Assembly (NCBI GenBank): GCA_050273025.1
Contig: CP158635.1
Span: 6,572,001 to 6,636,000, forward strand
DNA length: 64,000 bases
Direction: 5' to 3'
Origin: Cenococcum geophilum
Lineage: Eukaryota
The first letter of the stretch is position 1, and each line of letters begins with the position of its first letter. Positions 425 to 59,136 of the stretch are shown here, piece by piece. The notes beneath the pieces were generated by a model, which saw only the letters and a program-made list of their open reading frames with translations, was not told where the DNA came from and searched no databases. Both the position numbers and the translations under genes were made by a program.

Positions 425-510
425 GGCCGTCGAAATCGGACTCTGCACCTATATGTAGTGACGGCTACGAACCTAGGTCTTCGAAGTTCAGACTTAGAGC
501 CAACGCAGAG
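425..510 (+). ncRNA. HDV-like self-cleaving ribozyme fold (RIP-damaged)
   Basis: P1 GGCCGTC/GACGGCT with G1-U wobble; P2 CTCTGC/GCAGAG; P3 ACC/AGT (GGT in copy 2); 7-nt L3; P4 TAGGTCT/AGACTTA; J4/2 GCCAAC. Confidence 0.78.
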
Positions 511-1435
511 ACGTTGTACAGCGCGTTCTGGTGGGCCTGGTGGTGGTTATATACGTCGTGGGGCGTAGTAAAAAGTTTTTACATGGGATGGTGAGATCTC
601 GAAAACCACTATAGACGGTACCCCTTTATAATATAGCTATTACTATTCCCCTACTAAGCACCTATACGATCTAACATAGATGTATAGCATTTAATAGCAT
701 CTCCTAACCCCTAATAGAAAGTATTAATAACCTTTTATATTAACGAATAAGCGAATATAAACAAGTAATAAGTAAATATACGGCCCTTCCTAACCCCTAG
801 GGTGATCGCCCGCAGAGCATACGATCACTTACTATTAACTATTAAATACTACCTAGCAGCCTGGATAACACCGTGCGGTTTTCCTATCTCCTCTTAAGGA
901 GTGGTAACCCTTAGCGAGGGCCTAGCAACTAGGGCCTAGGTGTAAAAGATACCTAGGTATATATATATGTCCCGCTCGCCTTTTAGTATAGTAGTAGTTT
1001 ATAGATAAATCCCCCTTACGCCTTTAATAGGCCCTAGGGGGGGGAAGGCATGGCGTATATAGTAATGGTTAAACAAGAGATAGTATATAGGGGATGGCTA
1101 AGATATAGGAAATAACAGTATAGTAATTAATTGGCAAGGCCTAGCTGGGACGTAGTAAACCCTAGCTAGAATAAGCTAGAGAAGGAAGTAGTGGTTCCTA
1201 AGGAGTTCAAATATCTAAGGAGGACAGAATATAGCCGTAGGCTTATAGGGCCGCTGCTATGGACAAACATGGCAAACTGGGGTTTTTTATCCTACTAAGG
1301 TGGCTTATAGGGTTTTTCCTCCCCCAACTATAGGGTTTTTCTTCCTGTAAATTATAAGTTTTTCCCCTATAACGGAGTAGTCTACGTGGGCCGCGTAGGA
1401 TCCGTATTAGATGTTAAGTAATGAAATATTATTAT
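425..1435 (+). mobile_element. ~1.0-kb non-autonomous non-LTR retroelement (SINE/SIDE-like), copy 1, with 5' HDV-like ribozyme and (TAT)n tail
   Basis: 15-bp TSD TATATATGGCGTTAA at 410-424 and 1436-1450. It splits the Gypsy pol frame. It is the reverse complement of 4166-5184. Its 3' end (GGATCCGTATTAGATGTTAAGTAATGAA + TAT tail) matches the LINE 3' end at ~55233-55300. Confidence 0.88.
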
Positions 1436-4165: not shown

Positions 4166-5184
4166 GTAGTAATAGTAGTAATTCTTAATTAACGTCTAAT
4201 ACGGATCCTATCTAGGCCTACGCAGACTACTCCGTTATAGGGGGAAAACTTATAATTTATAGGAAGAAAACCCTGCAGTTTAGGGGAGGAAAAACCCTAT
4301 AAGCCACCTCAGTAGGATAAAAAACCCCGGTTTGCTATGTCCGTCTATAGCGGCGGCCCTATAGGCCTACGGCTACGTCCTGTCCTCCTTAGATGTTTAA
4401 ACTCCTTAGGAACCACTACTTCCTTCTCTAGCTTATTCTAGCTAGGGTTTACTATGTCCTAGCTAGGCCTTGCCGTTTAATTACTATACACTTATAGTTG
4501 TGTTCTGTATTTTAACTACCCCCTATATACTATCTCTTGTTAACTATTACTATATACGCTATGCCTTTCCCCCCCTAAGGCCTATTAAAGGCGTAAGGGG
4601 GATTTATCTATAAACTACTACTATACTAAAAGGCGAGCGGGACGTGTATGCCTAAGTATCTTTTATGCCTAGGCCCTAGTTACTAGGCCCTCGCCAAGGG
4701 TTACTACTCCTTAAAAGAAGACAGGAAAACCGTACGGTATTGTCTAGGCTGCTAGGTAGTATTTAATAGTTAATAGTGAGTAACTGTATGCTCCGCGGGC
4801 GATCGCCCTAGGGGTTAGGAGGGGCCGTATATTTACTCGTTGCTCGTTTGTTCGCAATCGCTCGTTTATTAACGTAAGAGGTTGTTAATGCTCTCTACTG
4901 GGGGTTAGGGGATGTTATTGAATGCCGCGCATCTATGTTGGATCGTATAGGTGCCTTAATAGGAGAATAGTATTGCTGTTGTTCGTAAGGGGCACTTAGT
5001 AGTAGTTTTTAAGATCTTACCATCCTATGTAAAAACTTTTCACTACCGCCTATAATACCCACCACCACTACTAGGTTGTATCGCACGCTATATAACGTCT
5101 TTACGTTGGCTCTGAGTCTGAACTTTAAAGACTTAGGTTTGTAGCCGTCACCACGTATAGGTGCAGAGTCCGTTTTTGACGGCC
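4166..5184 (-). mobile_element. ~1.0-kb non-autonomous non-LTR retroelement (SINE/SIDE-like), copy 2, with 5' HDV-like ribozyme and (TAC/TAT)n tail
   Basis: 14-bp TSD TTATCCTATAATTA (4152-4165) / TTATCCCATAATTA (5185-5198), one RIP-type difference. Homologous over its length to 425-1435. Inserted in Gypsy gag. Confidence 0.88.
5099..5184 (-). ncRNA. HDV-like self-cleaving ribozyme fold (RIP-damaged)
   Basis: Minus strand: GGCCGTC-AAAAACGGA-CTCTGC-ACC-TATACGT-GGT-GACGGCT-AC-AAACC-TAAGTCT...AGACTCA-GA-GCCAAC-GTAAAG. P1 and P3 are intact; the 3' strand of P2 is mutated. Confidence 0.75.
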
Positions 5185-23210: not shown

Positions 23211-26200
23211 TGTAATAGAGCCTTATAGTAGGAACTACAGTGGACTCGTTAATGGGCTAGGTATATAGGTATTATAAGTAAGTCAACAACGTAATAATAA
23301 CTGGTAGAGTGGTTGCCTAATAGATTAACTTTAATTGTATTCTAAGAATTACTATAAGGAAGAAACTATCTAGGTAGGGACTAAGGGTCCTTAAATATAC
23401 AATTATACTCCTAAGAAAGTCGTTACTCTATCTACTCTACTTACTCTATTCGCTTTATTATAGATCTCGTAGATTATATAGATTATATAGATTATATTAC
23501 GTGACTTTGCTTACTATTCCTCGTTATATAGTTTTATAGGTTCTATCCTAGACCGTACTTATATTAACTAACTAGCTTCTTCTAACTCCTCTCTAAGTAG
23601 TTATAATATTGTACTTAAAGCGTTTATAACACTATCTCCCTCCTCTTTATCTTTATTCTTAAAGATATCTAGTATTTTTAAGTTGTTTACTAGAGGTATA
23701 ATATCCGTCTAATTAATTTAGTTAATATTATTACTTATAATACCTAAAGCACCTTCTTCTTCTTTAACTCTTTATTATACGCGTATAGTCTCTTTTATAC
23801 TATTACTTAGTAAAGTAATATTATCTTTGTATTCTTATTACGTAAAAGAGGGGTTAGTTTATATTATATTAGCAAGTCCTTTATCTTAATAGCCCTCTTT
23901 TTATATAGAGTATACTAAAGCAAACGTTTGGTTATCCTATAATATTTGCTTAATTTTTAACACTAAGTATACGCGTTTTATAACTCTTAATAGTCTCTAG
24001 GTTCCCTAAGTAATTTATTATAAAGTTTTATATTTAATCTACTGCTATAAAGCTTAATAGTAAGCTGTCCTTAGCGCTGCTTATAGTTTAATATACCTTA
24101 GAAGAGTCCGTATATATCCTTAAAGCTTAGCGTCTAGCTTATACTTATCTTTAGCGTTTAGAATATGTCCATAAGAAGGTCCGTTTAAAAAAGTAAAAAC
24201 TTATTTAATAAGGTTTATAGGAACTTAGTAATAAAAGAATAGATTCTCTTTTAATAGAGAAGGAAATAACTCTAAGTAGTTCGGCAGTTGCTCTTCCTAA
24301 ATCCCCCTTAGGTAACTTATTCTTTAGCAATTCTTCTTTATTAATATTATCTAACCTTTTCTCTTCTAATACTCCTATACCTTTCTTATAGCGTTCTTTA
24401 GGTTCTCTAATAGCTTTTAGGTAGTCTTATTATAGCCTATCTACTTTACTTTATACTATATTTTATTATCTATATCCTTATAACTAACAATCTTTAAAAC
24501 TTGCTATTTATTTTCCTTTTATCCTCTATATATATCTGCTTTATAAACTAGTGACTTAACATTCCTATATACTGGCTTTAGTATTGCGATATGCTATATA
24601 GGGTAGATCTTTATCCTAGCTAGTAGGTTTAACTTAAATATAACCGGTAAAATTTTTTATATAATTTTAAAAGGTCCTAGTCTAACATAGTCTAACTTCT
24701 TACTTAGTTGTTAACTTTTAAAAATTTTATATAGTAGCTATACTTTATTTCCCTCCTTAAGATCTAGTCCCTTAGATCTCTTAATATTGTAGTACTTTTT
24801 TATCCTTTACTATACTACCTTAGCTGTTTCTATAAGGTCTGTATAAAGATTTATTAAACTCTTTATTCTTTATTTAGCTATGCTATTTATCTTCTTTACT
24901 TAATGTGGCGATAATAAGGTCTTTAGCTTATATCCATAATTCGCCTTAAATAGTAACGTACCTATTCCTTCTTATAGTATTATATTATATATAAACTATA
25001 TAACTAGTAATAGCGATACCTAATTATTCTACGCATAATTAATATAATGCCTTAGATATTGTTCTAGTATCTAATTTAATCTTTCTATTTAACTATCTGT
25101 CTATAAATAATATGCGGTAGAAGTTGCTACTTAAACTTCTTACTCTGCTAAGAATACTTCCTAGAATATTGTTATAAATCTTAAATCTCTATCTAATATA
25201 ATTTTGCTTAGTGCTCTATATCTTATAAATACTTCTTTAATATAGATTTTAGTAATATCTTCCGCTAATATTTCTTCTAAATATGCTATAAAGTACCCCT
25301 ACTTTATAAGCTTGTCTATTATTACTAAGATTATATTATAATCTTATCCAGTAATAGGGTCTTTTAACTTTAGTAGCTTAATAATAAAGTCCTATAATAT
25401 AACCTCCTATAGTCTCTCTAGTATTTTAATAGGTTATAGCTCTCTATATAGTTTATACCTTATTAGTTTATTCCTTTAGTAATCTAGATATTCTTTTATA
25501 ACTTACTTAGCTAGTCCTTAGATTCCCTTAATAATATACTCCTCTTAAAGTCTTAATACTAAGCCTATAGCTCCGTTATATCCTTAAGTTAATCCCTTAT
25601 AAAATAACTTAATAAACTCCTTTATAATAGACCTTAGTACGTATATTACTTTTTAATTTTTATACTACTTTAAGTCTAGATCTTCTATTTATATATCTAG
25701 GATCTTTTATATCTAATTACTTTCTAGTAATTTATAGGTTTTCTCTTCTTATGTTACTATAATCTTTAGATAATTATACTTAATTAATCTATCTATATCC
25801 TTTTATAATAAAGCCCCTAATAGCTTTTTATTGTTCTATAGTTTAACTTTTCTACTTAGAGCGTCTACTTATGTATTCTCTATACCCTTAGTATACTAAA
25901 TTTTAAACTAGTATTCTATAAGCATTTCCGTCTATCTAACTTATCTATAATTAAGTTCTTTTATTATTAGGAACCCTATTAGGTTCTTATAATCCGTTTT
26001 AACTATAAATAGTTTTTCTATACCTTATAAGAATAATTTCTATTTTTTTAGTACTATAACTATACCTAATAACTCCTTATTGTAGATGTTATAGTTTAGT
26101 TCCGGTAGTGTTATCTTCTAACTATAGTATACTACTAGGTGCCATCTATCTTTATATTTCTATAGAAAGTATACTCCTAGTATATAGTCTAATATATCTA

Positions 26201-29200: not shown

Positions 29201-31216
29201 TCTGCTTACTTAATTATCTTTAAATATTACTTCTTCCGTCTTATAAAGTAATAGATGCCGTATTTAATAGTGTTATAATACCCATTATTAAACCTTACTC
29301 TATAGCGGTCCTAGTCTCTACTTCTATTATATTATTAAGGTTTAAATACCCCTAATTAGTTCCTTTACTATCCTTATTGCTATTAATTAATAAGTACTCT
29401 AACTCTATTATTATTATTACTAATTATTATCCGTATATTATTATAATATCTTAATCTAGCTTATAGAGTTAATCTTATTCTTTATCTAACTCTTTAGTTC
29501 CTTTAAGTCCTTTTAACTCTAGCTTTTATAGCTAATAGCTTATACTATACTTAGCGTCTTTATAAATTCGGCATATATTATTATAATAAAACGCAAAACT
29601 TTTAATTAAACATTCTTTTATTTCTTATAATATACTATTGTCCCTTTATACGTATATATTACATACTACTAGTTTAGTTCCCTTTACTGCGTAATAACTC
29701 TAACTACTTTTATAGTTTTTAGTAAAATAACCCTATTTTCTATAATTTATATAAGCTCCGTTTTTAAACTATTACTTTTATTATAGAGTCCGCTTAAATA
29801 TCTTCTACTATTAAAATCCTTAGTTTAGCCTATACTCCTTAGTCCTATAATTACTTAATCCTTAACCTTTAGGTTTTTATAGTTTCTTACTCCATCTCTT
29901 ATAGGTTTCTTTAGTACTACTTAGGTCTATTAGCTCTACGCTATACTATAGTTTCTAACTTAGCTTTAGTTATTGCGTACTCTATGTTTTATATAACTAT
30001 AGAACTCTATCCTAGCCTCTCTTAGCCTATTCTCTTTAGAAGATCCTATTATTAATCTTAATTACTTAATCTATTAATTCCCTTAGGGTATCTACATCTT
30101 CCATTAAAATAATTACGTCCTAGACTTTAGCCTTAAGTCCCTATTTATACTATACTATAAGCGCCTTATTGTTTTATTTAACCTATATAGCAAGTGTTTA
30201 AAACTGTGTTATATACTTAATTGCTAAAGTTTGCTATATTAGGTTCTAAAGCTTTCTCTTTACTATAGTTATTGCTTCCGGGTCCCTAAATATTTATATT
30301 AATTATTTCACAAATCCTACCTAGCTAGAAAACACAAATCGTACCTCTTAATTAGTAGTAGTTATTCTATTAGTCTATATTTCCGTTAAATAGGGTTTAA
30401 ACTATTTAAGTGCCTATCCTATTAGGAATAGTTCTATGTAGGCTATCTAATCTATTAATATAGCTAACTTAGCCCCTTTTTATATAACCTTAAAATGCAT
30501 TTATATTAGGAATCCTTTAAGCTTTAATCTCTCCCCTAAGAATCGTTTAATTAAAGGTAACTTAACCTTCGCTGCTCTAATCCCATTAAGTCTTTCTTTA
30601 AGTATTTAGTTGTTCTTATTTAACCTATTAATAATTTCCTATAACTGCCTAACCGTAACTAGTTGTAAGTTAGTATCTTATATACTTATATCTTTACTTA
30701 ACCTTAAAATAGTTGCTGCCGTTAATGGCGTCATAGTGGCTGCTTTTGGTGGCATATTATTTAACTTATTAAAACCATAACTATGGTAGTAATTATATAA
30801 CAGAGCCTTATAGTAGGAACTATAGTGGACTTATTAATAGGCTAGGTATATAGGTATTATAAATAAGTTAACAACGTAATAATAACTAGTAGAGTAGTTA
30901 CCCAACAGATTAACTCTAATTGTATTCTAAGAATTACTATAAGGAAGGAACTATCTAGGTAGGGACTAAGGGTCCTTAAATACACAACCGTACTCCTAAG
31001 AAAGTCGTTACTCTATCTACTCTGCCTACTCTATTCACTCTATTATAGATCTCGCAGATTATATAGATTACACAGATTATATCACGTAACTCTACTTACT
31101 ATTCCTCGTTATATAGTTCCACGGGTTCTATCTTAGACCGTGCTTGTATTAACCAACTAGCTTCTTCCAACTCCTCTCTAAGTAGTCGTAACATTGTACT
31201 TAAAGCGTTCGTAATA
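23211..31216 (-). mobile_element. Full-length RIP-degenerate Ty3/Gypsy (chromovirus-type) LTR retrotransposon
   Basis: 421-bp direct LTRs 23211-23631 and 30796-31216; TSD TATGG/TACGG; gag start MPPKAA at 30755; protease ALVDSRA (~27590-27612); RT YLNNIIIY (~26622-26645); integrase; chromodomain-like GYNKTT*KLLENLKNA (~24390-24440). Confidence 0.92.
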
Positions 31217-35619: not shown

Positions 35620-38600
35620 TATAACAGAGCCTTATAGCAGGAACTGCGGTGGACTTGTTAATAGGCTAGGTATATAGGTATTATAAGTAAGTTAACAATA
35701 TAATAATAACTGGTAGAGTGGTTACCTAATAGATTAACTCTAATTGTATTCTAAGAATTACTATAAGGAAGGAACTATTTAGGTAGGGACTAAGGGTCCT
35801 TAAATATATAACCGTACTCCTATAAAATCCTCCTTATATATAATATATATGTTATACGTATTATATATAGGCGTATACCGCGTATAATGTATATACTGCG
35901 TATAATATTATATAACTCGCTTACTATTCCTTATTATATAGTTCTATGGGTTTTATCCTAGACCGTGCCTATATTAACTAACTAGCTTCTTCTAACTCTT
36001 CTCTAAATAGTCGTAACATTGTACTTAAAGCGTTTGTAATACTATCTCCCTCCTCTTTATCTTTGTCCTTAAAGATACCTAGCATCTCTAAGTTATTTAC
36101 TAGAGGTATAATATCCGTCTAATTAATTTGGTTAATATCGTTACTTATAATACCTAAAGCCTCTTCTTCCTTATAAGCGCAACATTATGCCCATACTGTT
36201 GCTGCAATACTATCGCTTAGTAAGATTATACTATCTCTATATTCTTATTGTTTAAAGGTAGGGTTAGTATATGTTATAATGGCGAGTCCATTGTCTTAAT
36301 AACCCTCTTTTTACTCGGAGTGCACTAAAGTAAACGTTTAATTGTCCTGCGATATTTGCTTTACTTCTAACGCTAAGTATACACGTCCTATAACTCTTAA
36401 TAGTCTTTAAGTTCCCTAAGTAATTTATTATAGGGTCTTATGTTTAATTTACTACTATAAAGCTTAATAATAAACTGTCTATTGCCTTAGCGGAACTTTA
36501 TCGTTTATATAACGCTAAAAAGGAGGCTGCTAATGCTTAACAACGGGCTCTTAATTCTCGTCTTACTACGTCTACTTAGTTAATTTGTCTTAAGAAAGTT
36601 TATAAAAAGGTTTATTTTAAGAAGTGGAAACTTATAGAATAAGGTTTACAGGAACTTAGTAATAAAAGAACAGATTTTCCTCTAACAGAGAAGGAAACAA
36701 CTTTAAGTAGTTTGGCAGTCGCTCTTCCTAGGTCCCCCTTAGGTAACTTATTCTTTAGCGATTCCCCTTTATTAATATTACCTAACCTTTTTTCTTCTAA
36801 TACTTTTATACCTTTTCTATAGAATTCTTTAGGTTCTCTAGTAGCTCCTAGGTAGTCTTATTATAGCCTATCTACTTTACTTTATACTATATTTTATCAT
36901 CTATATCCTTATAACTAACGATCTTTAAAACTTACTATTTATCCTCTTCTTGTCCTCTATATATGTCTGCTTTATAAACCGGTAGCTTAATATTTCTGTA
37001 TACTAGCTTAAGTATTATAATATACTATATAGGGTAGATCTTTATCCTAGCTAGTAAATTTAACTTAAATATAACCAATAAAATTCTTTATATAATTTTA
37101 AAAGGTCCTAGTCTAATATAGTCTAACTTCTTACTTAGTTATTAACTCTTAAAATTTTTATATAGTAGCTATACTTTATCTCCCTCCTTAAGATCTAGTC
37201 CCTTAGATCTCTTAACATTATAGTACTTTTTTATTCTTTGCTGTATTACCTTAGCTATTTCTATAAGGTTTGCATAAAGATTTATTAAACTCTTTATTCT
37301 TTACTTAGCTATACTACTTATCTTCTTTACTTAACGTAGCGATAATAAGGTCCTTAGCTTATATCCGTAATTCGCCTTAAATAGTAACGTACCTATTCCT
37401 TTCTATAGTGTTATATTATATATAAACTATATAACTAGTAATAGCGATACCTAATTATTCTATATATAATTAATATAATGCCTTAGATACTATTCTAGTA
37501 TCTAATTTAATCTTTCTATTTAACCGTCTGTCTATAGATAATATACAGTAGAAGTTACTACTTAAACTCCTTACTCTGCTAAAAACACTTCCTAGAATAC
37601 TACTATAAATCTTAGATCTCTATCCGATATAATCTTGCGTAGTGCTCTATATCTTATAAATACTTCTTTAATATAGATTCTAGCGATATCTTTTACTAAT
37701 ATTTTTTCTAAATATACTATAAAGTATCCCTACTTTATAAGCTTATCTACTATTACTAAAATTATATTATAATCTTATCTGGTAATAGGATTTCTTAACT
37801 TTAGTAACTTAATAATAAAGTCCTATAATATAACCTCCTATAGTCTCTCTAGTATTTTAATAGGTTATAGCTTTCCGTATAGCTTATACCTTATTAATTT
37901 ATTCCTTTAGCAATCTAAATATTCTTTTATAACTTACCTAGCTAGTCCCTAAATTCTATTAATAATATACTCCTTTTAAAGTCTTAATACTAAGCCTATA
38001 GCTCCGTTATATCCTTAAGTTAGTCCTTTATAAAATAACTTAACAAACTCCTTTATAATAGCTCTTAGTATATACGTTGCTTTTTAATTTTTGTACTACT
38101 CTAAGTCTAAATCCTTTTTTTATATATTTAGGATCTTTTATATCTAATTACTCTCTAGTAATTTATAGATCTTCTCTTCTTATATTACTATAATCTTTAA
38201 ATAATTATACCTAATTAATCTATCTATATCCCTTCGCAATAAAGCCCCTAATGGCTTTTTATTATTTTATAGTTTAGCTTTTCTACTTAGAGTATCTGCT
38301 TGTGTATTCTCTATACCCTTAGTATATTAAATTTTAAAATAGTATTTTATAAGCATCTCTGCCTATCTAACCTGTCTATAATTAAGTTCTTTTATTATTA
38401 GGAACCCCGTTAGGTTTTTATAATCTATCTTAACTATAAATAGTTTCTTTATACCTTATAAGAATAATCTCTATTTTTTTAATGCTATAATTATACCTAA
38501 TAACTCCTTATTATAGATGTTATAGTTTAGTTCTGGTAGTGTTATCTTCTAACTATAGTATACTACTAGGTGCCATCTATCTTTATATTTTTATAAAAAG

Positions 38601-45620: not shown

Positions 45621-45789
45621 TAAAGATACATAGCTTAGGAGATCGGCTTAGGTAGGAAGTTATTATATAATACTTCTCTTCCTTTCTCCGTTTGGGTTAA
45701 TCTAAGAAATTTAAATATATATCTTATCTATAGTCGGTCCGTTAGATATTATATAGCAACTATATTATCTATCTCCCATCAGCCTCCCC

Positions 45790-45895
45790 TTACCTTACCC
45801 TTTATCTTATCCTTTACCTCACCCTTACCCTTACCCTTACCCTTACCCTCACCCTTACCTTTACCCTTACCCTTACTTATTACCCCTTACCCCCC
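45790..45895. repeat. (CCCTTA/CCCTCA)n hexamer microsatellite
   Basis: Seen directly; CCCTTA is the expected RIP product of CCCTCA. Confidence 0.85.
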
Positions 45896-46130: not shown

Positions 46131-49100
46131 CTAGCGGTGCCTCTTAATTAGATGCTATACGCCATGTATAAAGGCTGCGTGATTTTTAAAATACTTAAGT
46201 CCTTTAATCTACTTTAAGTAATAAGGATGCTTATAGTGGAACCCCTACCTAAACACTCCTTCTATAACGTGATTATTAAGATGCTTTTATAGTGTATCCT
46301 TCTTTATAAATAGTTAGGTCTGCCTTAGCGTTAAAAGTTAGTTATTACCGATATAGATAAGACAAATAAGATTAGTAAACGTTATAGGATATAATAGCTA
46401 TATTATCTTAACATCCTCTTCCTTAATCGGGACCGCGCTCTGCGTCTTATCTAGGTTTTCTTAAAAAGGCAAGTCTAAGCTAATTTATTCTTTTTACCAC
46501 TTTGCCTATTTATAGGTACTAGTATTAGCGTCACTTACACCTCTTTTTACGCCTATTATACTTTAGTCTACTTTAAACCTAAGTTAAAATCCAATAGCCT
46601 TGCTTAGGATCCCATTCTACCAACTCTCTTATTAATTATAATACTTTATAAGATTGCGGATAAACTTTATACAGAGTTTTATAGCGTGTCCTTCTTTAAG
46701 CTTATTTAGCGGCTAAGATAGTAGTTTAGCAATAGTAGCACGTTCGCGAAATTTATACTATATAGCTAAACGGGTAGGAATTTCCGTCCCAACGCTACCA
46801 CTAAGCTATCTTTTAATATCGTAATTATTAATGGCGTTATAAAAATTAAGAATAACCTAGTCCTCTTTTTATTTGCGTAGGACGTTTATAATACTATAAA
46901 GTTTATATCTGGCTTCGTTATAACGGTTATATAGTTTCGTTCCCTTCGCGGTATTAATAAGGTAATATCCCTAGCTCCTAATCTTTTACTTATATTGCTT
47001 TCGTTTTTCGCAAAGCTATAAAATATTAGGGTATTAATTAAGTTCTAGCTAGAATTTAAGCTTCTGCTTATTAGTTAGACCTATAGGGGCCCGCTTATTC
47101 CTTAAGATCCCTATCTATATAGTATATTAAATAAGGTTATCCTATAATAGAGTCCTAAAGTAAATTAACTGGAAATCGCGCTTAATTAAATTAGGTAAAT
47201 AAAACCGTTAGTAGGTATCGCCGTAATAACCTATTATCTAATTTCGCTCTTCTAGAGTAAGGGCGCCTAGAAAACTTAGTTAATATATGCACTTATATTA
47301 AATTAGATACTTACTATTTAATTTCCTTCCGGACGCTTATCGCAGCTAGTAAAGTTTAAGTAATTATTTAAACCTAGCCACTCGGCCTAACTATACGTAG
47401 TAATCGCGGCATTTCTGGTAAGGGAATGCTTTAGTGTTTAATACTCCCCTATAACTAGCCATTATCTCAATATCTTAAAAGATGGGTCGTTTCTCTATCT
47501 CCTTTTTAAACTTCACTTTAAGACTTTCTTTTTTCGCTAGGATTTTAAGTCTAAAAATCTCTTCTGGTAAAGTATAATGGCGTTAAAATGTATTATCCGC
47601 GATAGTAAGGCTTATAAGATAGAATAGGATATAAAAAGCTAGGATACTTTTAAGACGGAAAATAAACCTCTTACTATAGGTCTATTAGCACTATTCGCGC
47701 TATCTTTAATCGACGTCGCTATATACTATCTGCCTATGCCTTTAGAATTCTTAATATATATAAGACTTATAAGGGCGACAGTTATAGTTTAATTAAAGTT
47801 TTTTATATTGCGAACTTTTAGGATTGTAATATGTTTATATAAAAGCGCTTTATTAGAGCCTCTCGCGCTTAAACTTTTAATAAGAGCTTGGGGTCTTATT
47901 ACCGTAGCACTAAAAAGAAGAAGGATTACTCTTATCTATACTTAAAAATAACTATAGTAAGGCTTTATGTCCATTATCTAATAGGCATTAATAATTATAT
48001 ACAAGTCCTGCATATATATAGCATCCTTTTCTTTCTCTAACATGTCCAGCTTATATATTAGCGTTAAGTAGGTTAGGATCCACTATAACAAATTAGCTAG
48101 GATTTTTTTTTTAAAAATTAAAGATTACCTATATCTTATATATTAAGTTCTGCGCCATTATTTATACTATGGCCTACTATATTTATAAATTTGTATAGTA
48201 TTCGTCTCTAGTATACCTAGATTGTGCTTTCCTTCTTAATTCAAGAATTCTTCACGCGCTATTTAAGGTATATTTTAAATATGTCGGCCACGCACTAATA
48301 AAGGGCCTTGGTTAGGTTAGATTTAACTTTTAGGCAGAACCTAAATACAAATCGTTAGTATTATAAGGTAAATTTTGGTTTAAATACTATTGGTTATACA
48401 AGGTAATATCACGTAACTACGGTTCGTAGATAGTATAATGATTATTATTCTCTCTATCTTAATAAGGGAGGGCGAGGAGCTTAAGGCTCCTCGCCACGCT
48501 AGTGCCGCGGCGACACGTAACGGCAACTTGCCGCATATAACGGCAACTTACCTATATTCCCAACACTGGCAACTCTTCTTTTGTGGTTGCCATCTATATA
48601 TATATATATCGCTCGACTAGCATAACAAATATCAATCCTCCTTACTTACTATTGCCGTTGTAATATAAGTCTCACTATCCTAAAATTTACCTCTTAGCAC
48701 GTGGTGCTTTCTTACTTAGGAGTTATAGGTAGATATCTTATTTAGAGAGCCGTTAAGGCGCTAGTAGTAAGCAAGCTAATAACGATTTTTCATCCTAGGG
48801 ATAGAAAATCCTAATTAGCTAGGTTAAGTTAGGGTCTGTGAAATCTAACCAATTAGATAACTTTAACCGCCGGTTAAAGTTCCTAGATATCTTAAGACCT
48901 TATATAACTAAGAAATTTCTAGGGACTTCCTTTTAACCTAACCTTTAACTCATATATATAGAATATTTATATTAATAAACGTCTCTAGTGCCTTATTTGG
49001 GTTCGCCTTTATCATTACATCTACTAGGTTATCTTAGCTATTAATTTATTAAATCTTAAAGAGTTCTTAACGCTCGTAGAATTGCTAAAGTGCTATAATA

Positions 49101-52100
49101 TTAATTATAAGGCGCTTCTCCTTTATAGTACTAAGCTTAACTAAATACTTATAAAGGGAATATAAGTTAGTGCATATAATTATAGGGATAATAGGAAGTT
49201 TAAGTCAATCTATAATTATCTTTAGGGTAGTTCCAATTGCAATTGCTATATTAACTCCGCTAACTATTCCATATATCTCTAATACTAAAACACTTTAGGT
49301 AACGCGCTTGCTCTTAGTTAAGCTCTAATAGATAAGATTACTATAAATTATAAAGTTATTCTCTCTAGTAAATTTATTCGCGATAATAATCTTATATCCT
49401 AACTAGGAGCTAAAATCTTTATTATTTATAAATAATCTATTAATAAATATAAAGAGCTTAGTGGTAGGAAGATTAATAGGCATATAGAGTAGTCCCTAAT
49501 TAAGATAGTTTATTTGCTAAAAAAGATATTTATTTAGGGTAAGAACGTTATCCTTAGTTAGTTCCTAGTATTAGGTAGTAATAAAGAGATTAAATAAAGC
49601 CTTAGATTAACAGATAGAAGTAATATAAGCTTTATAAGCACGTTGCTCCATATATCCTTACTTTAGAGAATTAATATTAATAACGTTAATCTTCTTGCCT
49701 TAACCCTTCTGGCGTAAAGTAATAGAATCCTTATTTAGGGAGAGGATGCATTTATTAAAAAGTAATAGTGTTATTAAATTAAGCTTTTCCTTTAGCTTTA
49801 CTATAAGATTTGCCTTTACTAGCTTATCCTCTTTAAGAGCTAAGAATTGGTTGTCTCCTAAGATAATTATATTATTAGTTTATATACCAATAATTCTAAA
49901 TAGGGTTCCCGTGGTTATAATAAGGAAGTAGGGATTAAATATAGAAGTAGTTATTAAAAGCTTCTCTTTATAGTGCTTGCTATAAGTAGCCCACCAGTAA
50001 GTTCCTACCTCTATAATTCTATATAATGGCTTAAGCATAACTATAATTGTATCTTTAGGATACTAGTGGCGAATTTGCTCTAGAAGGTATACTAATATTA
50101 AGCGCTAAAGGTGCGTCTTTAATTAGGTGTAGGCCTAAGTAATATCTTATAAATAGACCGCTATTCTATTCTTTATTAAGGAGGGAGCTAATATAATAAT
50201 AACTCGTTAACTAGCTCGTTAAATTATAGAAAATTACGTAAGAATTATCTCCTTACTATTGTCGTTATAACCTTAAATAATAAGCCTTAATTTCTTAAAT
50301 AGGGCGTTAGTAGCCTTACCCTTAATCTTATTAACCATCCTTAACTTAAAGATACAAACTTTATTAAACTTAGTAGGGTTATACTTCTCGAATTTAAAAA
50401 CTCCTCTTATAATAAGACCGTTAATCTCCTGCTTATTAGATGCTTGGAAAGGAGCTCCTAGGGTTATAATACGACCTTCCTTTCAGAGCTATTTTGCGAG
50501 CTTAAAGTCAGCCTTCTCTTTAGCTATTATAAAGGCCATTAATAACTTAACTCTATTCTTAATAGCGGTAATAAATTATTCTTTAAAATTAATAAGATAT
50601 TAGTAATTTCATGATCCCTTTAGGTAACCTCTACCGCGTTATAGTTATGGCGCATCTACTATAATTATATTAGGATTGTAGTCGCCTTCTAAAGCATATT
50701 AATTATGGTTTTCCTTTAGGGCATCTTCTAGGGCATCCTATAAAGGCTCAGAATTATTATCTTTATAATAAGGCTTAATAATAGTTAAATAGAATTAAAT
50801 GGGTCCGTCTAGCATCTAAATAGTATAAGTTTAACTATTAATTATAATAATTTAGTGTAGGCCTAACCATCTTCCCTTTTTACGCTATATATATACTTTA
50901 GACTAGAGTAGCAGATCAATTATAGTTAAGGTATTTAGGCCATTTCTTATTCTTAGTGCGTTATTAACCTAGCGTATAGCGTAGAGACGTCGCACCTCCT
51001 TTATTGCCTTATAAATAGCCTTAGCTTATTATATAATGGAGGGAGATAGTAGAGAATTATTAGTTATTTAAGGGTAGGCGCTAAAGACTAGTAATATAGG
51101 TATAAATCTATCCGGGCTAGCGGAATTATTAATAGCTTTAACAGCTATTTATAAGGTAAGTTCTTCGCTAGCGTTCTTTAGTTCTAAAGAGATAATCTTA
51201 TATACGCGGCGTAATGGCGTATAATATTGTTTTACTTTTCTAATACTATTATATACCTTAACGGGGACTTCCTTAACCTTAATTGCCATTACCTTTATCT
51301 ATTATCGGAACTCTATAGATAAGAAGTTCTTTCCTACGTTATAGACGATTTAATTAGGGGGTCCTAAATAGATATTAATCTAGTATAACTAAAGGGTATC
51401 CTATACGTTTCTAGCTAATATATCTTTTAAAAAACGCGCGGCTTAAAAGGAGGTTAAGAAGTTAATAACTTAAAGTACTGGCTTGCCGCTAAGATATATA
51501 ACGTTAATAATAATATAGAAGTTAAAGTTATAGTTATCCTTAAGAGTAAACTTAAATCGGCCAGGGGACTTCTGGTTTATTTAGTAGTAATAGTAGTACT
51601 TTATAAGATGCTTAATTGCCTTAACCTTAACTTTATGGCCTACTTACTAAAGAACCCTAAGTAATTAATAAACGGATAGGTGGCTAAAATAATAGTATAG
51701 TTGGTGTACTTCCGACTTAGTTAAGTAGCTTTAAGTAATACTCTTTTCTAGTTAATAAAGGAGTAACTAGGGGTAACCCTACTTGTATATAACGGGCACC
51801 CAATTATCTCCCTAAATAAGTATATTTTTAAGGTTATTAAGCCTAACGCCTAACTTATTTATATCTTTAATGTAAAATAGAAACGGAGTGTTTATAGGAA
51901 TAATATAGAAAGTAATATATCCTAGGGGGGTTTAGACCCTAATTATACTAAGAGAGATTGTAGTACCTTTACTAAAGCAAATTATATATTAGCCTGCCGT
52001 TAATTAGTTAATCTAAATAGAGCTATTAAGCTACTAAAGAGCTTAAACTTAAGGTTCTCCTACTATAAATACTTCTGCGGCTTCTATATCCAGTATAATA

Positions 52101-54647
52101 CTATAAAAGACGTACGCCAAGTATCTATTGTTAAAGGAAAATGCGGAACTCTTCTTTAGCTTATTAAAGATATCTAATTTTATAATAGAATGGAGCGTAG
52201 ATTAATTATTAAGAATAGCGACGGTTTATATACCATCTACCTTACCATACTTAGTAAAGTATTAATTAGAAGAGTAGTCTTTAATTTCTATATCTATAAG
52301 GAGCTATTTAACCTTATTAATCTTACCCTTAAGATCTTTTACGCCTTTGTATTAAACTAGGAAGCTTTAAAAGTAGGCTGTAGTAACCTCGCGATTTCTA
52401 ATATTTCTTACACTTTAACGGAACTTGTTATATACCTCTTTTTGCTTATTAAGGGAGTGTCTTATTAACTAGCAATTTAGCTTCTTATAAACATAGCACT
52501 TCTTTTAGCAATTACTTTAAAATAAACCTCTATAAGGACCTCTATAATTACCTTATAGTTAATATTAATTATACCCTCTTCCGTATTCCCTACTACGGCT
52601 ACTATATATTTAATTAGTCTAGTTATAATTATATTAGTCGGGAATACTTAGTTAGGTAGGGTTTTTAGTATAAAACTATTAAGATTCTTATATTTATATT
52701 ATAGTACCTACGGTGGAGCGTAGCTTAGTATATACTCCTTTAAACGTATCTATAGGTTTATATAGCGCTAAGTTACACTTAGGAATACTATAGCATACTA
52801 AGATAACCTAATCCCTTAGGCTGTTCTTATTTTAGTAAGTTTTAGTAAGGCCATATTAGATTTTCTAAAGTTTATTAAAGAGTAGTTAAAGGCACTCTAA
52901 ATAAGTCTTTATTAGGTTAGAAGCAATAACTCTCTAAAATATAGTCTCTCGCCATTCGGACATATAGAGTTAGCGATTCTTATTAGTCTTAAAGTGGGCT
53001 TTAGTAAGCTAAAGCATTATATTAAAGCTATAGTTTTTACCTGTAATATAGTCGTAATAGAATATTACTGCCCGTCCCTTTAACATAATGGAGAAAGTAT
53101 AGTAGTACTAGTGGCATTAAATTCTAACCTTGTTGCAATAGTTATAGAAGACCTATAGTTTTACTCTAAGTATATCGTATAATTCTTCTCTAAACTTTTT
53201 CTCTTTATCCAAATATACCTTTATTAGATTCGTAACTTCTTATAGTAAAGGGTTACTGGTTAGCTAGAGTAAAGAAGCTAAAGGCGGTAGAGGTAAAGGA
53301 CGAGTACCTTTAGGTAGGAAAGTACCTTTAGGTAAGAGAGTAGTGTTCTAGGGGTTTCGTTCTAAATTAAAGTTGCCTTTTAAAGAATATAGGTTAGTTC
53401 TAGGTTTCCGTAGTTAACGTATAATCTTAGCTTCTGTTTATACTAGTTCTTCTATACTAGTAATAACGGCCTAAATATTACTAGTAATTAGGTTACCGTT
53501 TTTAGCAACATATACCCCGTTTCTATAAAGAAAGTCTTAAAAATCCCAAACAATATTAATATTGCTAAGTACCTAGGTATTAGCGGTCTATCCTATAAAA
53601 TCCTCCCTAAAATATTCCCATAGCTATATATTGGTATAGTGTCTACTTTAGTAGAATATAATATGGTATAGGAGAAAGCCATTAACTTATTTTGTAGTAT
53701 AAGTTATTATATTAAAGGTAAATTCATCCTAATTTTTATTAATAAGTTTCGCGTATAAAGCTACCCCTAGTAGTAAGGAGTCTTCCTAGTTGTTTAAAGT
53801 AGGCATAGCCATATTTTTAGAGGGAGGGAAGTATTATTAGCGTAGGGATTGTCGTTTAGTACGCGTTTATAATATATATTTGTTATTTAGTACGCGTTTG
53901 TGACGTATATTTGTAATTATAGGGCTTAGGACTAGTTCTAGCCTTAAATTATAAAGACTTGTAAAGCGTGTTGTTCTATATAATAGACGTAAGAATCTAT
54001 AATCTTAGAAAGGCTTAGGACCAGTTCTAGCCTTTAGATTCTTAGATTTGTAGAAGAGTTCTATTTAAGGTTTAGGACCAGTTCTAACCTTAAAAGACAG
54101 CTTCCTCTAGCACGAGTAGTACTAGTACAGTGGCTCGTCTCTTCTTAGTGGAATACCTAGCTACTCTGTGGTATAACAGTAAAGTTAACTACTAATTAGT
54201 ATTAGTTATATAAGGTAATATTATATAGCTACAGTTCGTAGATAGTATAATAATTATTATTCTCTCTATCTTAATAAGGGAGGGCGAGGAGCTTAAGGCT
54301 CCTCGCCACGCTAGTGCCGCGGTAACACGTAACAGCAACTTGCCGCATATAACGGCAACTTGCCTATATTCCTAATAAATACAAATAAACTTTTCCCAAT
54401 TCCGGAACTTATACTTAACAAGAGAAGTAGACTAGGGCTTCTGTTTTAACTTCGCCCTTTCTTAATCCTTATAATACGCAATCCTCTACCATAAATATTT
54501 CCCCTTAGAATTAGCGTCTTCCCTAGCTCTAGAGTTAGAGCTTAAATTTAAGTCTAAAGCTGGCTTAGAATAAAACGGCTTGCTTAGTTTAGAGTCTAAG
54601 CTAGAGGCTAAATCTATATTTCGCCATTTCTTACTTTAAGAGGGTAT
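46131..54647 (-). pseudogene. DUF3435-type tyrosine recombinase (Starship 'captain') pseudogene, RIP-inactivated, with Copia B in its first intron
   Basis: Acidic/Ser-rich N-terminus; KIYLK*RVKNS*IKKESTI*VY*RR; SATVIRPQALI (catalytic R region, ~47880-47910); Y*LR*ASGRKLN (~47320-47351); ALTLEERN*IIGYYGDTY*RFY (from MGH…Y); RDFQLIYF; RNKRAPIGLTNKQK; C-terminal C2H2-like CL.Y…KHL..H and YFKNHAAFIH. Confidence 0.82.
48388..54377 (-). mobile_element. Full-length RIP-degenerate Ty1/Copia LTR retrotransposon, copy B
   Basis: 178-bp direct LTRs 48388-48565 and 54200-54377; 5-bp TSD AATAC (48383-48387, 54378-54382); internal region collinear with 14088-19722. Confidence 0.92.
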
Positions 54648-57600
54648 AATGGTTAAATACGTAGTGTCTTAGTGCTTTAGTAGCTGCTAGTTGCCTATAC
54701 GCAGAAGCTAGCTTAAAAGCGACTACTGTTAATAGGAACGCTAAAAATAGCTTTATAGGAGATCGGCGTTTTTAAGAGCGGGACAGGGCAAAAAAATCCC
54801 ATAGGTAGAAACCTAGAAATTGAGTATTAGAAGTGAACGATATAATAATAGGGGAAAATGCATACGTAGCTACTGTAGGAAAAGGGTTAAAGGAGTATAG
54901 TGTAGAAGGGAGGTTTTGTTATATAAGGGTAGTGCTTTTAGCAGAGGATAAGGATAAAGGTAGGCGGTAAACGTCTATAGCTTCTTAAATAATATTAGCC
55001 GCTAAGGGATATTTAGGGAGCTTTAAGAGGTACGTTATAGGGTTATATACGCGATTCTAGGTTTAGTGGGTAAGTAAGGGAGACCCTACCGTCCTTGGCA
55101 TACTTAGTATATTATAAAAGCGGTGACAAATATAGGTCTAAGTGAGGAGAAACTGCCTCCTAAAATAGGGGGGAGGAACCTCTAAATCCGGCTGCGTTTT
55201 CCCTAATAATAAGATTCTAGTAGGTATATATAATAATAATAATTCATTGCTTAACGTCCGATTCGGATCCCTATTGGGCCTACGCGGACTACTCCTTATT
55301 TATATATAGGGAGAAAACTTAACTTAAGAAAGACTTAACTTGAGAAAACCCCGTAATCTATCTCCCCGCCTTTTAAGACTCGCCTATAAGGCGCCTGCGA
55401 GGCGCCTGCGAGTCACCTATAGTGCTCCTACTACCTTACTTTTTAACCTCCTTAGGAACCACTGCTGCCGTAACAAGCCTACGGACGCGCTAGTATCGCA
55501 AACTTTACTCTACTACTATAGAGTCATTAGGGGGCGCCCGTTGCTCGCCCCCCTACCCTCTATTACTATTTCCCTTGCAACCTAGAACTGGTTTAGTATA
55601 TTTTAGCTAATAAGCCACTAGATAACCGCCTTAAGGCCTTTTTATATTAAGAGTAGTATATTATAGTTCTCTATACTAGCTACTAAAAGCATTACTTTTT
55701 AGTTAGTGTATAAGGGGCATAACAGTATTACATATTTTAGTGTCTATCTTAGCCAGCTATATTCGTATCTTAGGTTACCTACTAAGACACCTACCCAGTA
55801 GAGCTAGTCTTTTAGTCCTATTATTCCTATTCTTAAAAGTATCACTATTATATTTTCTGCCTTCGTTAGGCCTTCTTAGAGCCCTAGAGTGTTTACCCCC
55901 TATAGCGTTAACTATGCTACGGCTTAGGTTTCTCTTGCCTTAGTTAGCCTCTATACCTTTAACTCCTATACACCTCTTTAGCGTTAGTTTAACTAGTATT
56001 ATATTACAGTAGATAGTTTCCTAGCGTTCTTTCGTACTCTACTTTAGCTCCTTTCTCTCTCTTACTATTATCTTTACTGGCCTCTTATGCGTCTTTCTTC
56101 CTCCTCTATATAGGCCTAGGCCCTAAAGTAGCACTATTCTTCTTCTGCTTTCTTTACCTATTTCTCTAATATATCTTCCCTACTTTAGGGTTGTTAGTTT
56201 ATTCTCCTATAGGGCGCCCTAGGGTCCCTCTATAGTTTATTTAGGCGTGTCTTAATATACTTTATAATATTAGAGTTACGTTTATTTTAGGCCCTTTATA
56301 TTACAGCGGCTTTAATATATAGTTATAGGGGGGGAATATTGGCTTCCTTCTTAAGCAGTGCTGTGGCCGTTCGTTTATATCCGCCTATTATACTCTAAAG
56401 GCAGGCTATTTAGACCTTTTAGAGTAGTTTAAGGAGTGACTTAAGGGGGCCTTTCTTAGATTCTCTAATGGCCTAAATACTAGACCTATACGTCATGGTT
56501 AGCCAGACGGCTGCTATATATAGTAGACGTAACCTCTAGAAGCATGGGCCTTATATAGAGTTAACAATCCTAAATAATATAATATACTATACTTAGCCCT
56601 TATAGGCTGCTTGCGCCGTATATACGCTCTACTAGAGCTTACTATCTACCTATACTCCTAATACTCTTAGGCCCTAAACTAGTTAACCCCTAAAGCCTTA
56701 GATACGAATTATATACTAGAAATCTATAGATTGGTTGCGTTTTCTTATAAAATAGATTAGCTGGTATTTCTTTGGTAAGAATTAAACTCTATATTATCTT
56801 GCCCATTCTATATAGGTATTATATACTTTCTCTAGTGTTTTGCAATTCTCTGCGGCTATTAGCCCGTATATAATTAGGTTTATATTATCGACAAAGCCTA
56901 TCCCTTAGGTTGCCCCTTTTTTAAAGGAGTTAAGCAGGTTGCTTATAAAGAAAAGGAAGAGTATAGGCAAGAGGGGTGATTCTTATAGTATTCCTGTTGC
57001 AACTGCGATAGGGGGGCTTTGGTATCCGCTAAAGACTAGTAATATTTCTTTTTATAGGTAGTTATATATTAGCTAGTAATATAGTAGAGTTTAATATACC
57101 TGCTTATTTAAGCCTCTACCCTAGTTTTCTAGTGCTTTAGTCCTAGTCTGTAAGCAGTTAGCTGCTACCACTACTTATATAGGGAATTTCACCATTCTTT
57201 TGGATATTTTATAACGGGTTATTAGCCTAAGTACTAGTCTACCCCCTAGCAGTCTGTATAAGAGTCTCCTCCCAAAGTTAGTACGCTTTTGTATAGCTTG
57301 GGAGCCTTCCATAGCCTTTAGTTTTACGCCTTTTCTATTATTTCCGCTGGCATAGGTATAAGCTACTATTTCTAGGGGTCGCAACTCCCGTTTTACGCGC
57401 CTACTAGCGTAATCCTATAAAGGCGTTATAGCTATATCCTATAATATAGACTTAGGCGCACTTTCTATAGTTAGGCCTAGCCAAAACCTTCCTGCCTAAG
57501 TAACTCCTATTTACTTCTTAAGTATATCTTACTAGCGTACCGCCCTAGAGACGGATGGTTCTGTCTATTAATATACTAACACGTATATCCGTTCTCTTAA

Positions 57601-57964
57601 GCCACGTAATAGTTTCTTTAGCTAGGACGTAATTCTATCTACCTACTAGGTATACTAAGGGTTAGAGCCTAGCTAAGGGGTAAGGTCCTTAGAGCTAGCA
57701 GTAGCTACTACGCACTACGCCCCACAAGAGGTTCCCGTTTTACGTTACCTATAAGAGTTTCCTTATAATAGGCCGACCGTATTTTATAAGAGAGGGGCCG
57801 TAGAGACACTAAGTCCCGCACTAGATAACCTACTTCCCTCTCTCCTACTAACTAAGCTTATATCCCCCCCTTTTATAAGCTAGCCTATATCTCTAACTAT
57901 TAAGACCTTATCCAACTGGCCTGTGTTTCCCCTATAGCCTCCCCTATATATATATATTAAGTTA

Positions 57965-58400
57965 TATACACTACGCCTATTAAGACCCTTCTATGAGTCG
58001 CCTTATATATATGCGCATTAGGTTGCGTACACCACGCCTATTAAGACCCTCCTATGAGTTACCTATAAGTCGACTAAGTTGTACGCCATAGGGCCGTCGA
58101 AGCTAGCCTGTGTTTCCGCTACCTAGAGCTTTACCCGTATTTCCACCTCGTTAAGCCATCTAGTCGCCGTCACATCGCTATTGTGTTACTATTGCGTCGC
58201 TGTCGTCCAGGTCGCGCGCACTATGCCTATTAAGACCCTCTTTTAAGTCACCTAGGTGTACTAGATACTAGATAGGCCCTTATAGAGGGGCCTTAATAAG
58301 TTCTCTAGGTAGGGCCTTAATAAGTTCTTTGCGGTGGCCTTAGGGCCTTAATAAGTTTTATATAAAGTATCTGCGACGCGTTAACCTTAATAAGTTCTTA
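57965..58400 (-). repeat. Short dispersed repeats in the LINE 5'/ORF1 region
   Basis: (C/T)GCCTATTAAGACCCT occurs three times (~57975, 58035, 58225) and CCTTAATAAGTT four times (~58281-58396); on the minus strand they read like peptide repeats (EGLNRR, ELIKA). Confidence 0.65.
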
Positions 58401-58733
58401 TAAAAAAGGTTCCCTACGCCCTCGCCGTATCCTCTCGGTCTTAGAGCTAGTGTAAGCCTAAGGGTGTCCTATCGTACGCCTAGGGCGCGTCTACGTTAAC
58501 TGGCTAAATAAGGCTAGTTTCGGGCCTGGCTGCGAGCCAGGTAGTTATACGTTAGGCGGTTTTCGTATCCCAGTTTCCCTTAATAGCCCCCCTAGATAGT
58601 ATGGCAGGAGCCCTAAGTAAGGGCAGTAGGACTCCTGGTGTTATTAAGGGCGATATACGCGTTACAGGCTTAACACCACAGAGTCGCAACACCAGCGCGC
58701 TGCGCGCGCTGCGACGGCTCTCCTCCATCGCCT

Positions 58734-58818
58734 CTGCACTTAGCCATCATAGGGAATAATTTCCCGATGATGTTTCCACCCGCGGCGACGTGGACGCGTG
58801 CAGTAGGGCTTCGCGGGC
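58734..58818 (-). ncRNA. HDV-like self-cleaving ribozyme, apparently intact (85 nt)
   Basis: Minus strand: P1 GCCCGCG / J1/2 AAGCCCTA / P2 CTGCAC / P3 GCG / L3 TCCACGT / P3' CGC / P1' CGCGGGT (G1-U wobble) / P1.1 GG (pairs CC of L3) / AAA / P4 CATCATCGGGAA-ATTA-TTCCCTATGATG / J4/2 GCTAA / P2' GTGCAG. Confidence 0.92.
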
Positions 58819-59136
58819 TAGTAGGTATATATATATATACATCTTTATATCTATATCTCTGTATATATACGTAATATATACTCTAAATATTTTAGTTTAT
58901 ATGGTTGCTTAAGTTAAATATAGCTACCGATGCGCGTTCTGTATAGGTAAAGGTTAAGTACCGCCGACCCTTTTCCGGCGTTCCATCGGCAACCACGCTC
59001 AGCTTTCGCCGACCCACATCGGCGACCATGTTCAACTTTTTCCGGACCACGCTCAGCTGTACCCCGTCTCGCTTCCTGGGGTCCCACGTTAAGGCAGACC
59101 TGACCGCCTGCAGAATGGACAGCAGTTGAACCTAAC

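Follow-up and report, generated by a model that had tools for sequence, protein, structure and literature searches.

We describe here a probable fungal counterpart of the ribozyme-headed retroelements known from animals (insects) and trypanosomatids. It lies in a 64,000-nt stretch of the Cenococcum geophilum genome (contig CP158635.1 of assembly GCA_050273025.1, positions 6,572,001 to 6,636,000, forward strand), hereafter the window, in which positions are counted from the first letter. The stretch contains a 3586-nt element on the minus strand (55233..58818), composed of a module that we call M and the 3′ 1.8 kb of a long interspersed nuclear element (LINE), together with two copies of a shorter family, S, that resembles a short interspersed nuclear element (SINE). 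In our assessment, both element types open with a predicted self-cleaving ribozyme of the hepatitis delta virus (HDV) type, a statement to which we assign, jointly with the full explanation of S and M as passengers of a LINE, a probability of about 0.72. The fungal host and an autonomous LINE with no ribozyme of its own detected are new here. A full-text literature search turned up no HDV-like ribozyme described from a retroelement of a fungus, and a mention in the primary ribozyme surveys of 2009 and 2011 is possible.

The closest precedents are the R2 short internally deleted elements (SIDEs) of Drosophila and the R2/R1 hybrid SIDEs. According to the part of PMC3414825 that describes them, these carry a 5′ HDV-like ribozyme and a LINE 3′ end, and template jumps are reported; in the hybrids, the ribozyme of one lineage is joined to the 3′ end of another, and the target-site duplications (TSDs) measure 14 bp. 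As portrayed there, R2 SIDEs resemble S and M in being non-autonomous, in their 5′ HDV-like ribozyme, and in ending with the 3′ end of the LINE whose machinery serves them. They differ in that the ribozyme is inherited from the autonomous R2, insertion is specific to ribosomal DNA, and the elements are co-transcribed by RNA polymerase I, whereas the partner LINE of S and M has no detected ribozyme, the insertion sites are dispersed and AT-rich, the host is a fungus, and the ribozyme occurs in two divergent versions.

The second system that bears on the locus is MINE of Magnaporthe, in which, as set out in the portion of PMC2104539 on its structure, the full-length, 1.1-kb non-coding WEIRD sequence is fused to a 5′-truncated MGL LINE or Mg-SINE. 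On that account, MINE shares with the M chimeras a non-coding 5′ module of ~1-2 kb with a fixed 3′ end, variable LINE or SINE pieces, bi- and tripartite forms, TSDs of ~14 bp, transcription, and a 5′ module of which no solo copy is seen. It is unlike them in that a ribozyme is nowhere mentioned in PMC2104539, and the full-text literature search returned no report that links the two. The switch-site consensus given in the same source, GCC*A/U, is approximate at best at the M junctions, and then at one of the four.

Other HDV-like ribozymes of dispersed elements come from more distant systems. In L1Tc and NARTc, of the ingi clade of trypanosomatids, the Pr77 ribozyme frees the element RNA from long co-transcripts, as described in the relevant sections of PMC3185411 and PMC4035085. 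Pr77, an HDV-like ribozyme at the 5′ end as predicted for the heads of S and M, occupies the first ~77 nt of dispersed LINEs and is a hallmark common to relatives; there, an autonomous LINE and its relatives carry one conserved ribozyme sequence, whereas here none was detected in the LINE and two parasite families have different helices. RTE, Baggins and metazoan SINEs, in the part of PMC6765202 concerned with them, are likewise promoter-less, co-transcribed elements released by a 5′ HDV-like ribozyme, and all are metazoan, unlike the fungal S and M.

The chimeric element, the LINE and family S

Read on the minus strand, the 3.6-kb element starts with GCCCGCG at 58818 and ends at ~55233 in GCAATGAA plus a (TTA)n tail. 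A copy of its TSD, TATATACCTACTA, flanks it on either side (58819-58831 and 55218-55230; duplication of 13-15 bp), so that the element is a complete target-primed insertion. The sequence-only reading had labelled it a LINE. Its protein-derived part (55558..57039, minus strand), a remnant with stops due to repeat-induced point mutation (RIP), comprises the C-terminal half of open reading frame 2 (ORF2) alone, with the palm and thumb of reverse transcriptase (RT) and a C-terminal Cys-His region. Specifically, a family hidden Markov model built from 37 full-length relatives matched the element at profile positions 629-1096 of 1105 alone (273 bits), tblastn with full-length relatives aligned it solely from about residue 610-670 on, and neither the endonuclease nor the N-terminal part of the RT was matched by that profile in any frame. 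Translated with X at stops, the element had no Pfam match, and with stops read as Q/W it gave a sub-threshold match to RVT_1 (16.2 bits, E 0.0089). An exhaustive phmmer search with its translation recovered 2153 relatives, down to E 1e-83 (fungal APE-RT proteins), of which the long ones are fungal-type proteins of ~1100-1200 residues with apurinic/apyrimidinic (AP) endonuclease and RT domains. Stop codons number 100-133 in every frame, and the dinucleotides show a RIP signature (TpA/ApT ~2). The element thus possesses no recognisable endonuclease or complete RT frame, and the label had to be given up: judged by its composition, this is a chimeric, non-autonomous non-LTR retrotransposon (LTR, long terminal repeat), heavily RIP-mutated.

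Scanning metagenome contigs with a 19-nt 3′ motif yielded 124 related loci, including two obvious GC-rich false positives, and three kinds of element were found to end in this motif: an autonomous LINE, family S, and the M chimeras. The LINE measures 5.55 kb and has both an upstream ORF1 region with Cys-His knuckles and a full ORF2 with AP-endonuclease and RT, that is, the equipment expected of an autonomous element. The LINE part of the 3.6-kb element is 86% identical to its 3′ 1.8 kb (blastn). All 11 full-length copies start with GGAGCTCTTGCTGCACC, and this 5′ end gave no Rfam match at E up to 10 on either strand and no match on the sense strand to the ribozyme descriptor presented below; from its sequence, we regard it as an autonomous LINE without a detectable ribozyme. 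A sister LINE beginning GGCCGTC, which the sequence-only reading had postulated as the source of the short element, was not found among the fetched loci. At one locus (L070), a reverse-complement LINE 5′ end lies upstream of a 5′-truncated LINE, head-to-head.

Module M (57055..58818, minus strand; element nt 1-1764) consists of a head with the ribozyme fold and ~1.67 kb without detectable coding capacity. It holds a 46-nt repeat three times and several AACTTATTAAGGCC repeats. It contains no long ORF, and the LINE profile does not match it, even in a partly de-RIPped consensus that was built by script from four copies. That M might be the 5′ half of a sister LINE was considered and rejected, because each frame of this consensus was still interrupted by 20-33 stops and the profile again found nothing. 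Public gene predictions (P0127, P0125 and P0132) contain short ORFs that are translations of less mutated copies of module M and take in the region of the ribozyme; P0127, the one M-derived ORF that was scanned, contained no Pfam family.

Family S is represented in the window by two RIP-mutated copies with 83.5% mutual identity. Copy A (425..1435, plus strand) is a SINE-like element of ~1.0 kb with its head at 425-511, its 3′ stem-loop at 1376-1423, and its TSD, TATATATGGCGTTAA, at 410-424 and 1436-1450; copy B (4167..5184, minus strand) has an S-type head at 5098-5184 and the TSD TTAATTATRGGATAA. Elsewhere the family is also ~1.0 kb long, and 16 heads were collected in all, two of them from these copies. 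In 11 loci the head lies 936-960 nt upstream of the 3′ motif, and family S is a stable SINE-like unit. It is not a classical SINE: ARAGORN found no tRNA-like gene in the window, and no small-RNA family reached the Rfam threshold. Since the head is a ribozyme fold and not derived from tRNA, 7SL or 5S, "SINE-like" says no more here than that the element is short and depends on a LINE. The two copies are inverted, ~2.7 kb apart, and flank another RIP-mutated repeat (~1440-4170; entire span 424-5187).

Stringent LINE/SINE pairs, such as UnaL2 and UnaSINE1 of eel, have in common a short conserved 3′ hairpin and a tail of short repeats. The similarity of the 3′ ends reported by the sequence-only reading proved to be of this kind. 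Within the window, blastn aligned ~90 nt with an identity of 74-77% (E 4e-10 to 9e-12), and local alignment scores were 40-41 against a shuffle mean of ~10, equalled in none of 200 shuffles. The shared end had also been put forward as a candidate RT recognition element, and it does fold: 16 LINE- and S-type ends gave a consensus stem-loop with an outer 5-bp stem, GUC(C/U)G/C(G/A)GAC, and an inner stem of 6 bp that closes a loop of differing length and sequence. One pair of the outer stem covaries, being U-A in 13 ends (S type) and C-G in three (LINE type). In the 3.6-kb element, this candidate recognition site for the LINE RT lies at 55249..55297 (minus strand) and is followed by GCAATGAA and the tail at ~55231-55243. 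Tails are microsatellite-like; ends of the LINE type have (TAA)n or (TTA)n, and those of S frequently have (TAC)n. Further upstream, the LINE 3′ untranslated region contains a conserved 18-nt box, GCAGTGGTTCCTAAGGAG (55448..55465, minus strand), with equivalents in S at 1188-1205 (plus) and 4402-4419 (minus), by which S 768-790 maps to LINE 5345-5367 (blastn); the box as first noticed, GYAGTGGTTCCTAAGGAG, occurs three times in the window against 0.06 expected. With a 3′ end in common with the LINE, and with the TSDs and the kind of tail that target-primed reverse transcription typically leaves, S has the features of stringent LINE-dependent non-autonomous elements, which supports the proposal that the short elements are parasites with a LINE-type 3′ end. 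The likeness to UnaL2/UnaSINE1 extends to the 3′ hairpin, and its conservation suggests that the LINE RT may recognise it in S and M as well.

Predicted HDV-like ribozymes at the 5′ ends

The head of M (58731..58818, minus strand) conforms to a strict double-pseudoknot descriptor of HDV-like ribozymes, which does not depend on Rfam. In the predicted fold, P1 pairs positions 1-7 with 35-41 and includes a G1.U41 wobble, P2 pairs 12-20 with 81-88, P3 pairs 22-24 with 32-34 below the loop L3 (UCCACGU), P1.1 consists of C26-G43 and C27-G42, and P4 pairs 47-58 with 63-74, with GCUAAG in J4/2. When 261 nt around this head were searched against 4227 Rfam families, RF00094, the HDV ribozyme, was the best match, over the full model (58727-58820; 31.1 bits, E 0.0058, gathering score 50). 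The M head of another chimera (L071) reached 24.3 bits with the same family. The head of S copy B had as its top match RF02682, the HDV-like ribozyme of F. prausnitzii, at a level that is not significant (16.1 bits, E 0.84), and another S head had a weak top match to RF01787 (13.7 bits). An HDV-family model was thus the top Rfam match, at full length, in four of the five S and M head stretches that were scanned.

The descriptor called for a 7-bp P1 closed by G.U, a 3-bp P3, an L3 of 6-8 nt, a 2-bp P1.1, no fewer than 5 bp in P2, and C-N-R-A ahead of P2′. Across both strands of the window and the 124 loci (~1.58 Mb), it matched 16 times: at nine S heads, at three M heads, and at four AT-rich sites elsewhere. 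All three M heads and nine of the 16 S heads pass it, the failing seven including both window copies, which show RIP-type damage; for each head, one in 20000 dinucleotide shuffles passed. The G1.U wobble that closes P1 is present in 16/16 S and 3/3 M heads, and J4/2 reads GCCAA or GCUAA, placing a cytosine in the C-N-R-A context. Among the 16 S heads, 94.8% of the pair cells of the six helices are paired, against 27-44% when the partners are slid by 1-3 columns. Moreover, an original S L3 of UGUACGU, with P1.1 formed by G-C and U-A, was predicted from the mutated window copies and was borne out in 11 of 16 by less mutated copies. In copy A, which scores 109.6 bits with a covariance model of the S heads but is itself in the training set, L3 and P3′ have been harmed by G-to-A changes; both window copies of S are probably catalytically dead, to judge from their predicted folds. 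In the M copy of the window, unlike in these S copies, every pair is still intact. Window copies of M and S alike are RIP-mutated relics.

Comparison of the two heads bore out the central claim of the sequence-only reading, that one RNA fold is built from different helix sequences at the head of both element types. The helices are as it had listed them: P1 is GCCCGCG/CGCGGGT in M and GGCCGTC/GACGGCT in S, P3 is GCG/CGC and ACC/GGT, respectively, and P4 is unrelated. Across P1, P3 and P1.1, seven of 12 pairs are altered on both sides, five are identical, and none is broken; four of the seven swapped pairs are transversions, which are beyond the reach of RIP. Unchanged are the six core pairs of P2, five of the seven L3 bases (U--ACGU), and GCYAA in J4/2. 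Sequence alone does not allow the two ribozymes to be aligned, the observed score being reached by 122-137 of 200 shuffles, and the pairs were therefore matched by structure. Of the claim that compensatory covariation can be seen inside one window, the seven exchanged pairs stand, extended to the P1.1 pseudoknot, which had gone unnoticed, and the structure-based matching makes the evidence weaker than first presented. The pattern is that expected for two versions of one ribozyme selected for its fold. The motifs said to be shared downstream of the ribozyme, in the 5′ untranslated regions, did not exceed chance: over the post-ribozyme 358 nt, the best alignment was equalled by 28 of 200 shuffles for copy A and by two of 200 for copy B, and the best local alignment differs from the motif pair that had been cited. 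Of those motifs, CAGCGCG..CTGGTG is unique to S copy A of the window, most other S copies having CAGCGTGC at that place.

The 5′ junctions provide evidence of a different sort. In S, the TSD abuts G1 with zero extra bases in all 13 copies for which both ends are available, and in M it does so exactly in two of three copies, the third (L071) being ambiguous; TSDs of 12-18 bp were found in these 13 S and two M copies. Of the 16 insertions of S and M that could be tested, 15 have the fold starting with their first transposed base. The LINE behaves differently, with TSDs of 14-18 bp in 10 of 11 full-length copies that are set 5-198 nt upstream of the conserved 5′ end. The same machinery therefore gives exactness only to fold-headed elements, ends being exact in S and M and ragged in the fold-less LINE, and this difference is a natural control for the role of the ribozyme. 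The extra 5′ sequences of the LINE (5-198 nt; L032, L047, L055, L064, L074, L076, L013, L004, L056 and L079) are unrelated sequence and often close in a short A or T run; they could come from 5′ transduction, template jumps, or untemplated addition.

Several results weigh against the interpretation of the heads as ribozymes of LINE passengers. The Rfam gathering score was reached by none of the heads (best 31.1 against 50), a scan of the whole window at gathering thresholds gave no match, and the head of S copy A, the fifth of the stretches scanned, had no Rfam match. The descriptor, although true to the general definition of the family, was composed after the sequences were known, and the structural matching of M to S in part presupposes its own outcome. 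Within S, covariation is weak, with four pairs showing double changes, a number equalled by 41 of 500 shuffles, and it is confounded, because RIP transitions can imitate double changes. The covariance model from the 16 S heads misses M at E up to 10. M is known as DNA from three copies only, of which L071 has no clear TSD. In the RNA mapping, read starts do not pile up at G1, where depth is only ~5, and a precise transcription start at G1 would equally yield exact 5′ junctions. Finally, it is the likeness of the 3′ ends that points to the LINE as the mobiliser of both families, and the 3′ ends of S form a subtype with (TAC)n-type tails, so that the partner of S could be a different, unsampled LINE.

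Among the window and the loci, the S covariance model recovered its own training set alone. Three weak full-length matches below this level (15.7, 12.5 and 11.7 bits, with E of 0.76-6.8) led nowhere, the first two, in L021 and L062, looking on inspection like chance; a fourth match is an S head truncated by the 5′ edge of L027.

Origin of the chimeras and alternative explanations

Module M recurs in L030 and L071 at 78-83% identity (blastn), where it is fused to different 3′ parts. In the window, the chimera is M(1-1764) + LINE(3760-5558), in L071 it is M + LINE(5215-5561), and in L030 it is tripartite, M + M(607-1764) + S(247-1018), with a 14-bp TSD on both flanks. In these three chimeras, as DNA, the 3′ boundary of M, ...AACTACCT(A), is constant in all four junctions, and the breakpoint of the partner is different each time. 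Additional joints at the M end were found in genome and RNA contigs, among them an equivalent of the L071-type joint, present in both, and joints to internal M positions in genome contigs. The window chimera and the tripartite L030 chimera each lie as a whole inside one perfect TSD of 14-15 bp. A complete 5′ module, a fixed 3′ end, variable partners, and one TSD around the whole are what characterises template jumping of the MINE type.

We infer the following route. S and M, in which no promoter was recognised, would be transcribed within longer read-through RNAs, from which the ribozyme, as modelled, would cut directly 5′ of its own G1 and thereby set the exact 5′ end of the element RNA. The 3′ stem-loop and microsatellite tail, copied from the LINE 3′ untranslated region, would then recruit the LINE RT for target-primed reverse transcription, and insertion would generate the target duplications of 12-18 bp. 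In the case of the chimeras, the LINE RT most likely left a LINE template for the 3′ end of an M RNA, which it then transcribed as far as the ribozyme-defined 5′ end; fusion of M to LINE and to S would in this manner be a product of template jumping.

Three other explanations have to be set against this route. The sequence-only reading held that the 3.6-kb element is a LINE with an HDV-like ribozyme of its own and the short element its SINE, derived from a sister LINE, with both untranslated regions in common. The RT remnant, with its RVT_1 and phmmer matches, the common 3′ end, and the ribozyme folds in both elements all speak for it, and we nevertheless consider it the least probable of the three: of ORF2 the element has just the C-terminal half, its first 1764 nt constitute a module in their own right that is fused elsewhere to other 3′ parts, the 11 full-length LINEs with the same 3′ end start otherwise and have no detected ribozyme, and the likeness of the 5′ untranslated regions is at chance level, so that the view is contradicted for the window copy. 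Only slightly less improbable is that the 5′ folds are non-catalytic, being structured leaders or internal promoter regions, and that exact ends come from a fixed transcription start. SINE-like elements usually depend on internal promoters, the Rfam threshold is never reached, and the RNA reads came without observed cleavage. Two unrelated sequences, however, satisfy all structural demands of HDV ribozymes (G.U at the cut site, a 2-bp P1.1, and the J4/2 cytosine), their fold begins at the first transposed base in nearly every testable insertion, and neither a tRNA-like head (ARAGORN) nor a small-RNA family at the Rfam threshold was found.

A DNA-level origin of the M-LINE and M-S chimeras, through nested insertions, deletions, or ectopic recombination between repeats, strikes us as unlikely, if less so than either of the above. 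The genome is packed with these repeats and hence rich in substrates for recombination, and R2 SIDEs are thought, in the part of PMC3414825 on their origin, to stem from internal deletion. Such events are hard to reconcile with an M end that is the same in all four junctions while the partner breakpoint varies, and with the enclosure of the window and L030 chimeras in single perfect TSDs; a whole chimera in one TSD is the signature from which template jumps were deduced for Magnaporthe MINE, as the corresponding part of PMC2104539 explains. Template jumping onto a ribozyme-headed M RNA therefore remains our preferred account of the chimeras.

Transcripts, genomic setting and implications

Two genome runs and two RNA runs were mapped on the 3.6-kb element. 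Summed contig depth was very high, that of the LINE part exceeding that of M about tenfold from a step at ~57050-57160, and contigs that leave the element at 57054 run on as canonical LINE sequence. M is covered by RNA reads, mainly in one orientation, the sense one provided that the library was stranded in the usual way. Most reads have G/C where the window has A/T, and so derive from less RIP-mutated copies. In the run for which raw reads were used, the orientation over the LINE 3′ part (55229-56131) was opposite to that over M (19.6 vs 0.44, and 102.5 vs 5.8 for M), which suggests that, somewhere in the genome, 3′ regions of LINEs are transcribed in antisense.

The window is AT-rich, with GC of ~0.25-0.42 up to ~58 kb and the RIP dinucleotide signature. 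Just past the 5′ end of the 3.6-kb element, GC climbs to 0.46-0.50 over ~58.9-63 kb, and an ordinary-looking coding region seems to begin near 59138 on the plus strand; the element thus stands at the border of an AT-rich compartment. Additionally, long direct repeats of 84-92% identity pair 14117-19124 with 48597-53601, ~34.5 kb apart, and, in the same range of identity, 23213-24470 with 30798-31216 and 35622-36901, ~5-12 kb apart; these are probably more RIP-mutated transposon copies or LTR pairs. A tandem array at 45774-45875 has a 12-nt period of CCCTTA/CCTTTA-like units, which are like but not identical to telomere-type CCCTAA.

Tentatively, we see the ribozyme in this fungus as a property of the parasites rather than of the LINE: it may provide promoter-less, non-coding RNAs with an exact 5′ end, and cleaved M RNA may be a favoured acceptor for template jumps. 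We regard this as possible, though less likely than not. The two ribozymes, with the same core and seven swapped pairs, constitute a ready-made mutational set for a cleavage assay. The case ties ribozymes to MINE-type chimeras, where the WEIRD RNA has been without known function or origin since 2005-2007. If the same were true of the Magnaporthe WEIRD RNA, ribozyme-headed RNAs would be a general ascomycete route to the mobility of non-coding RNA.

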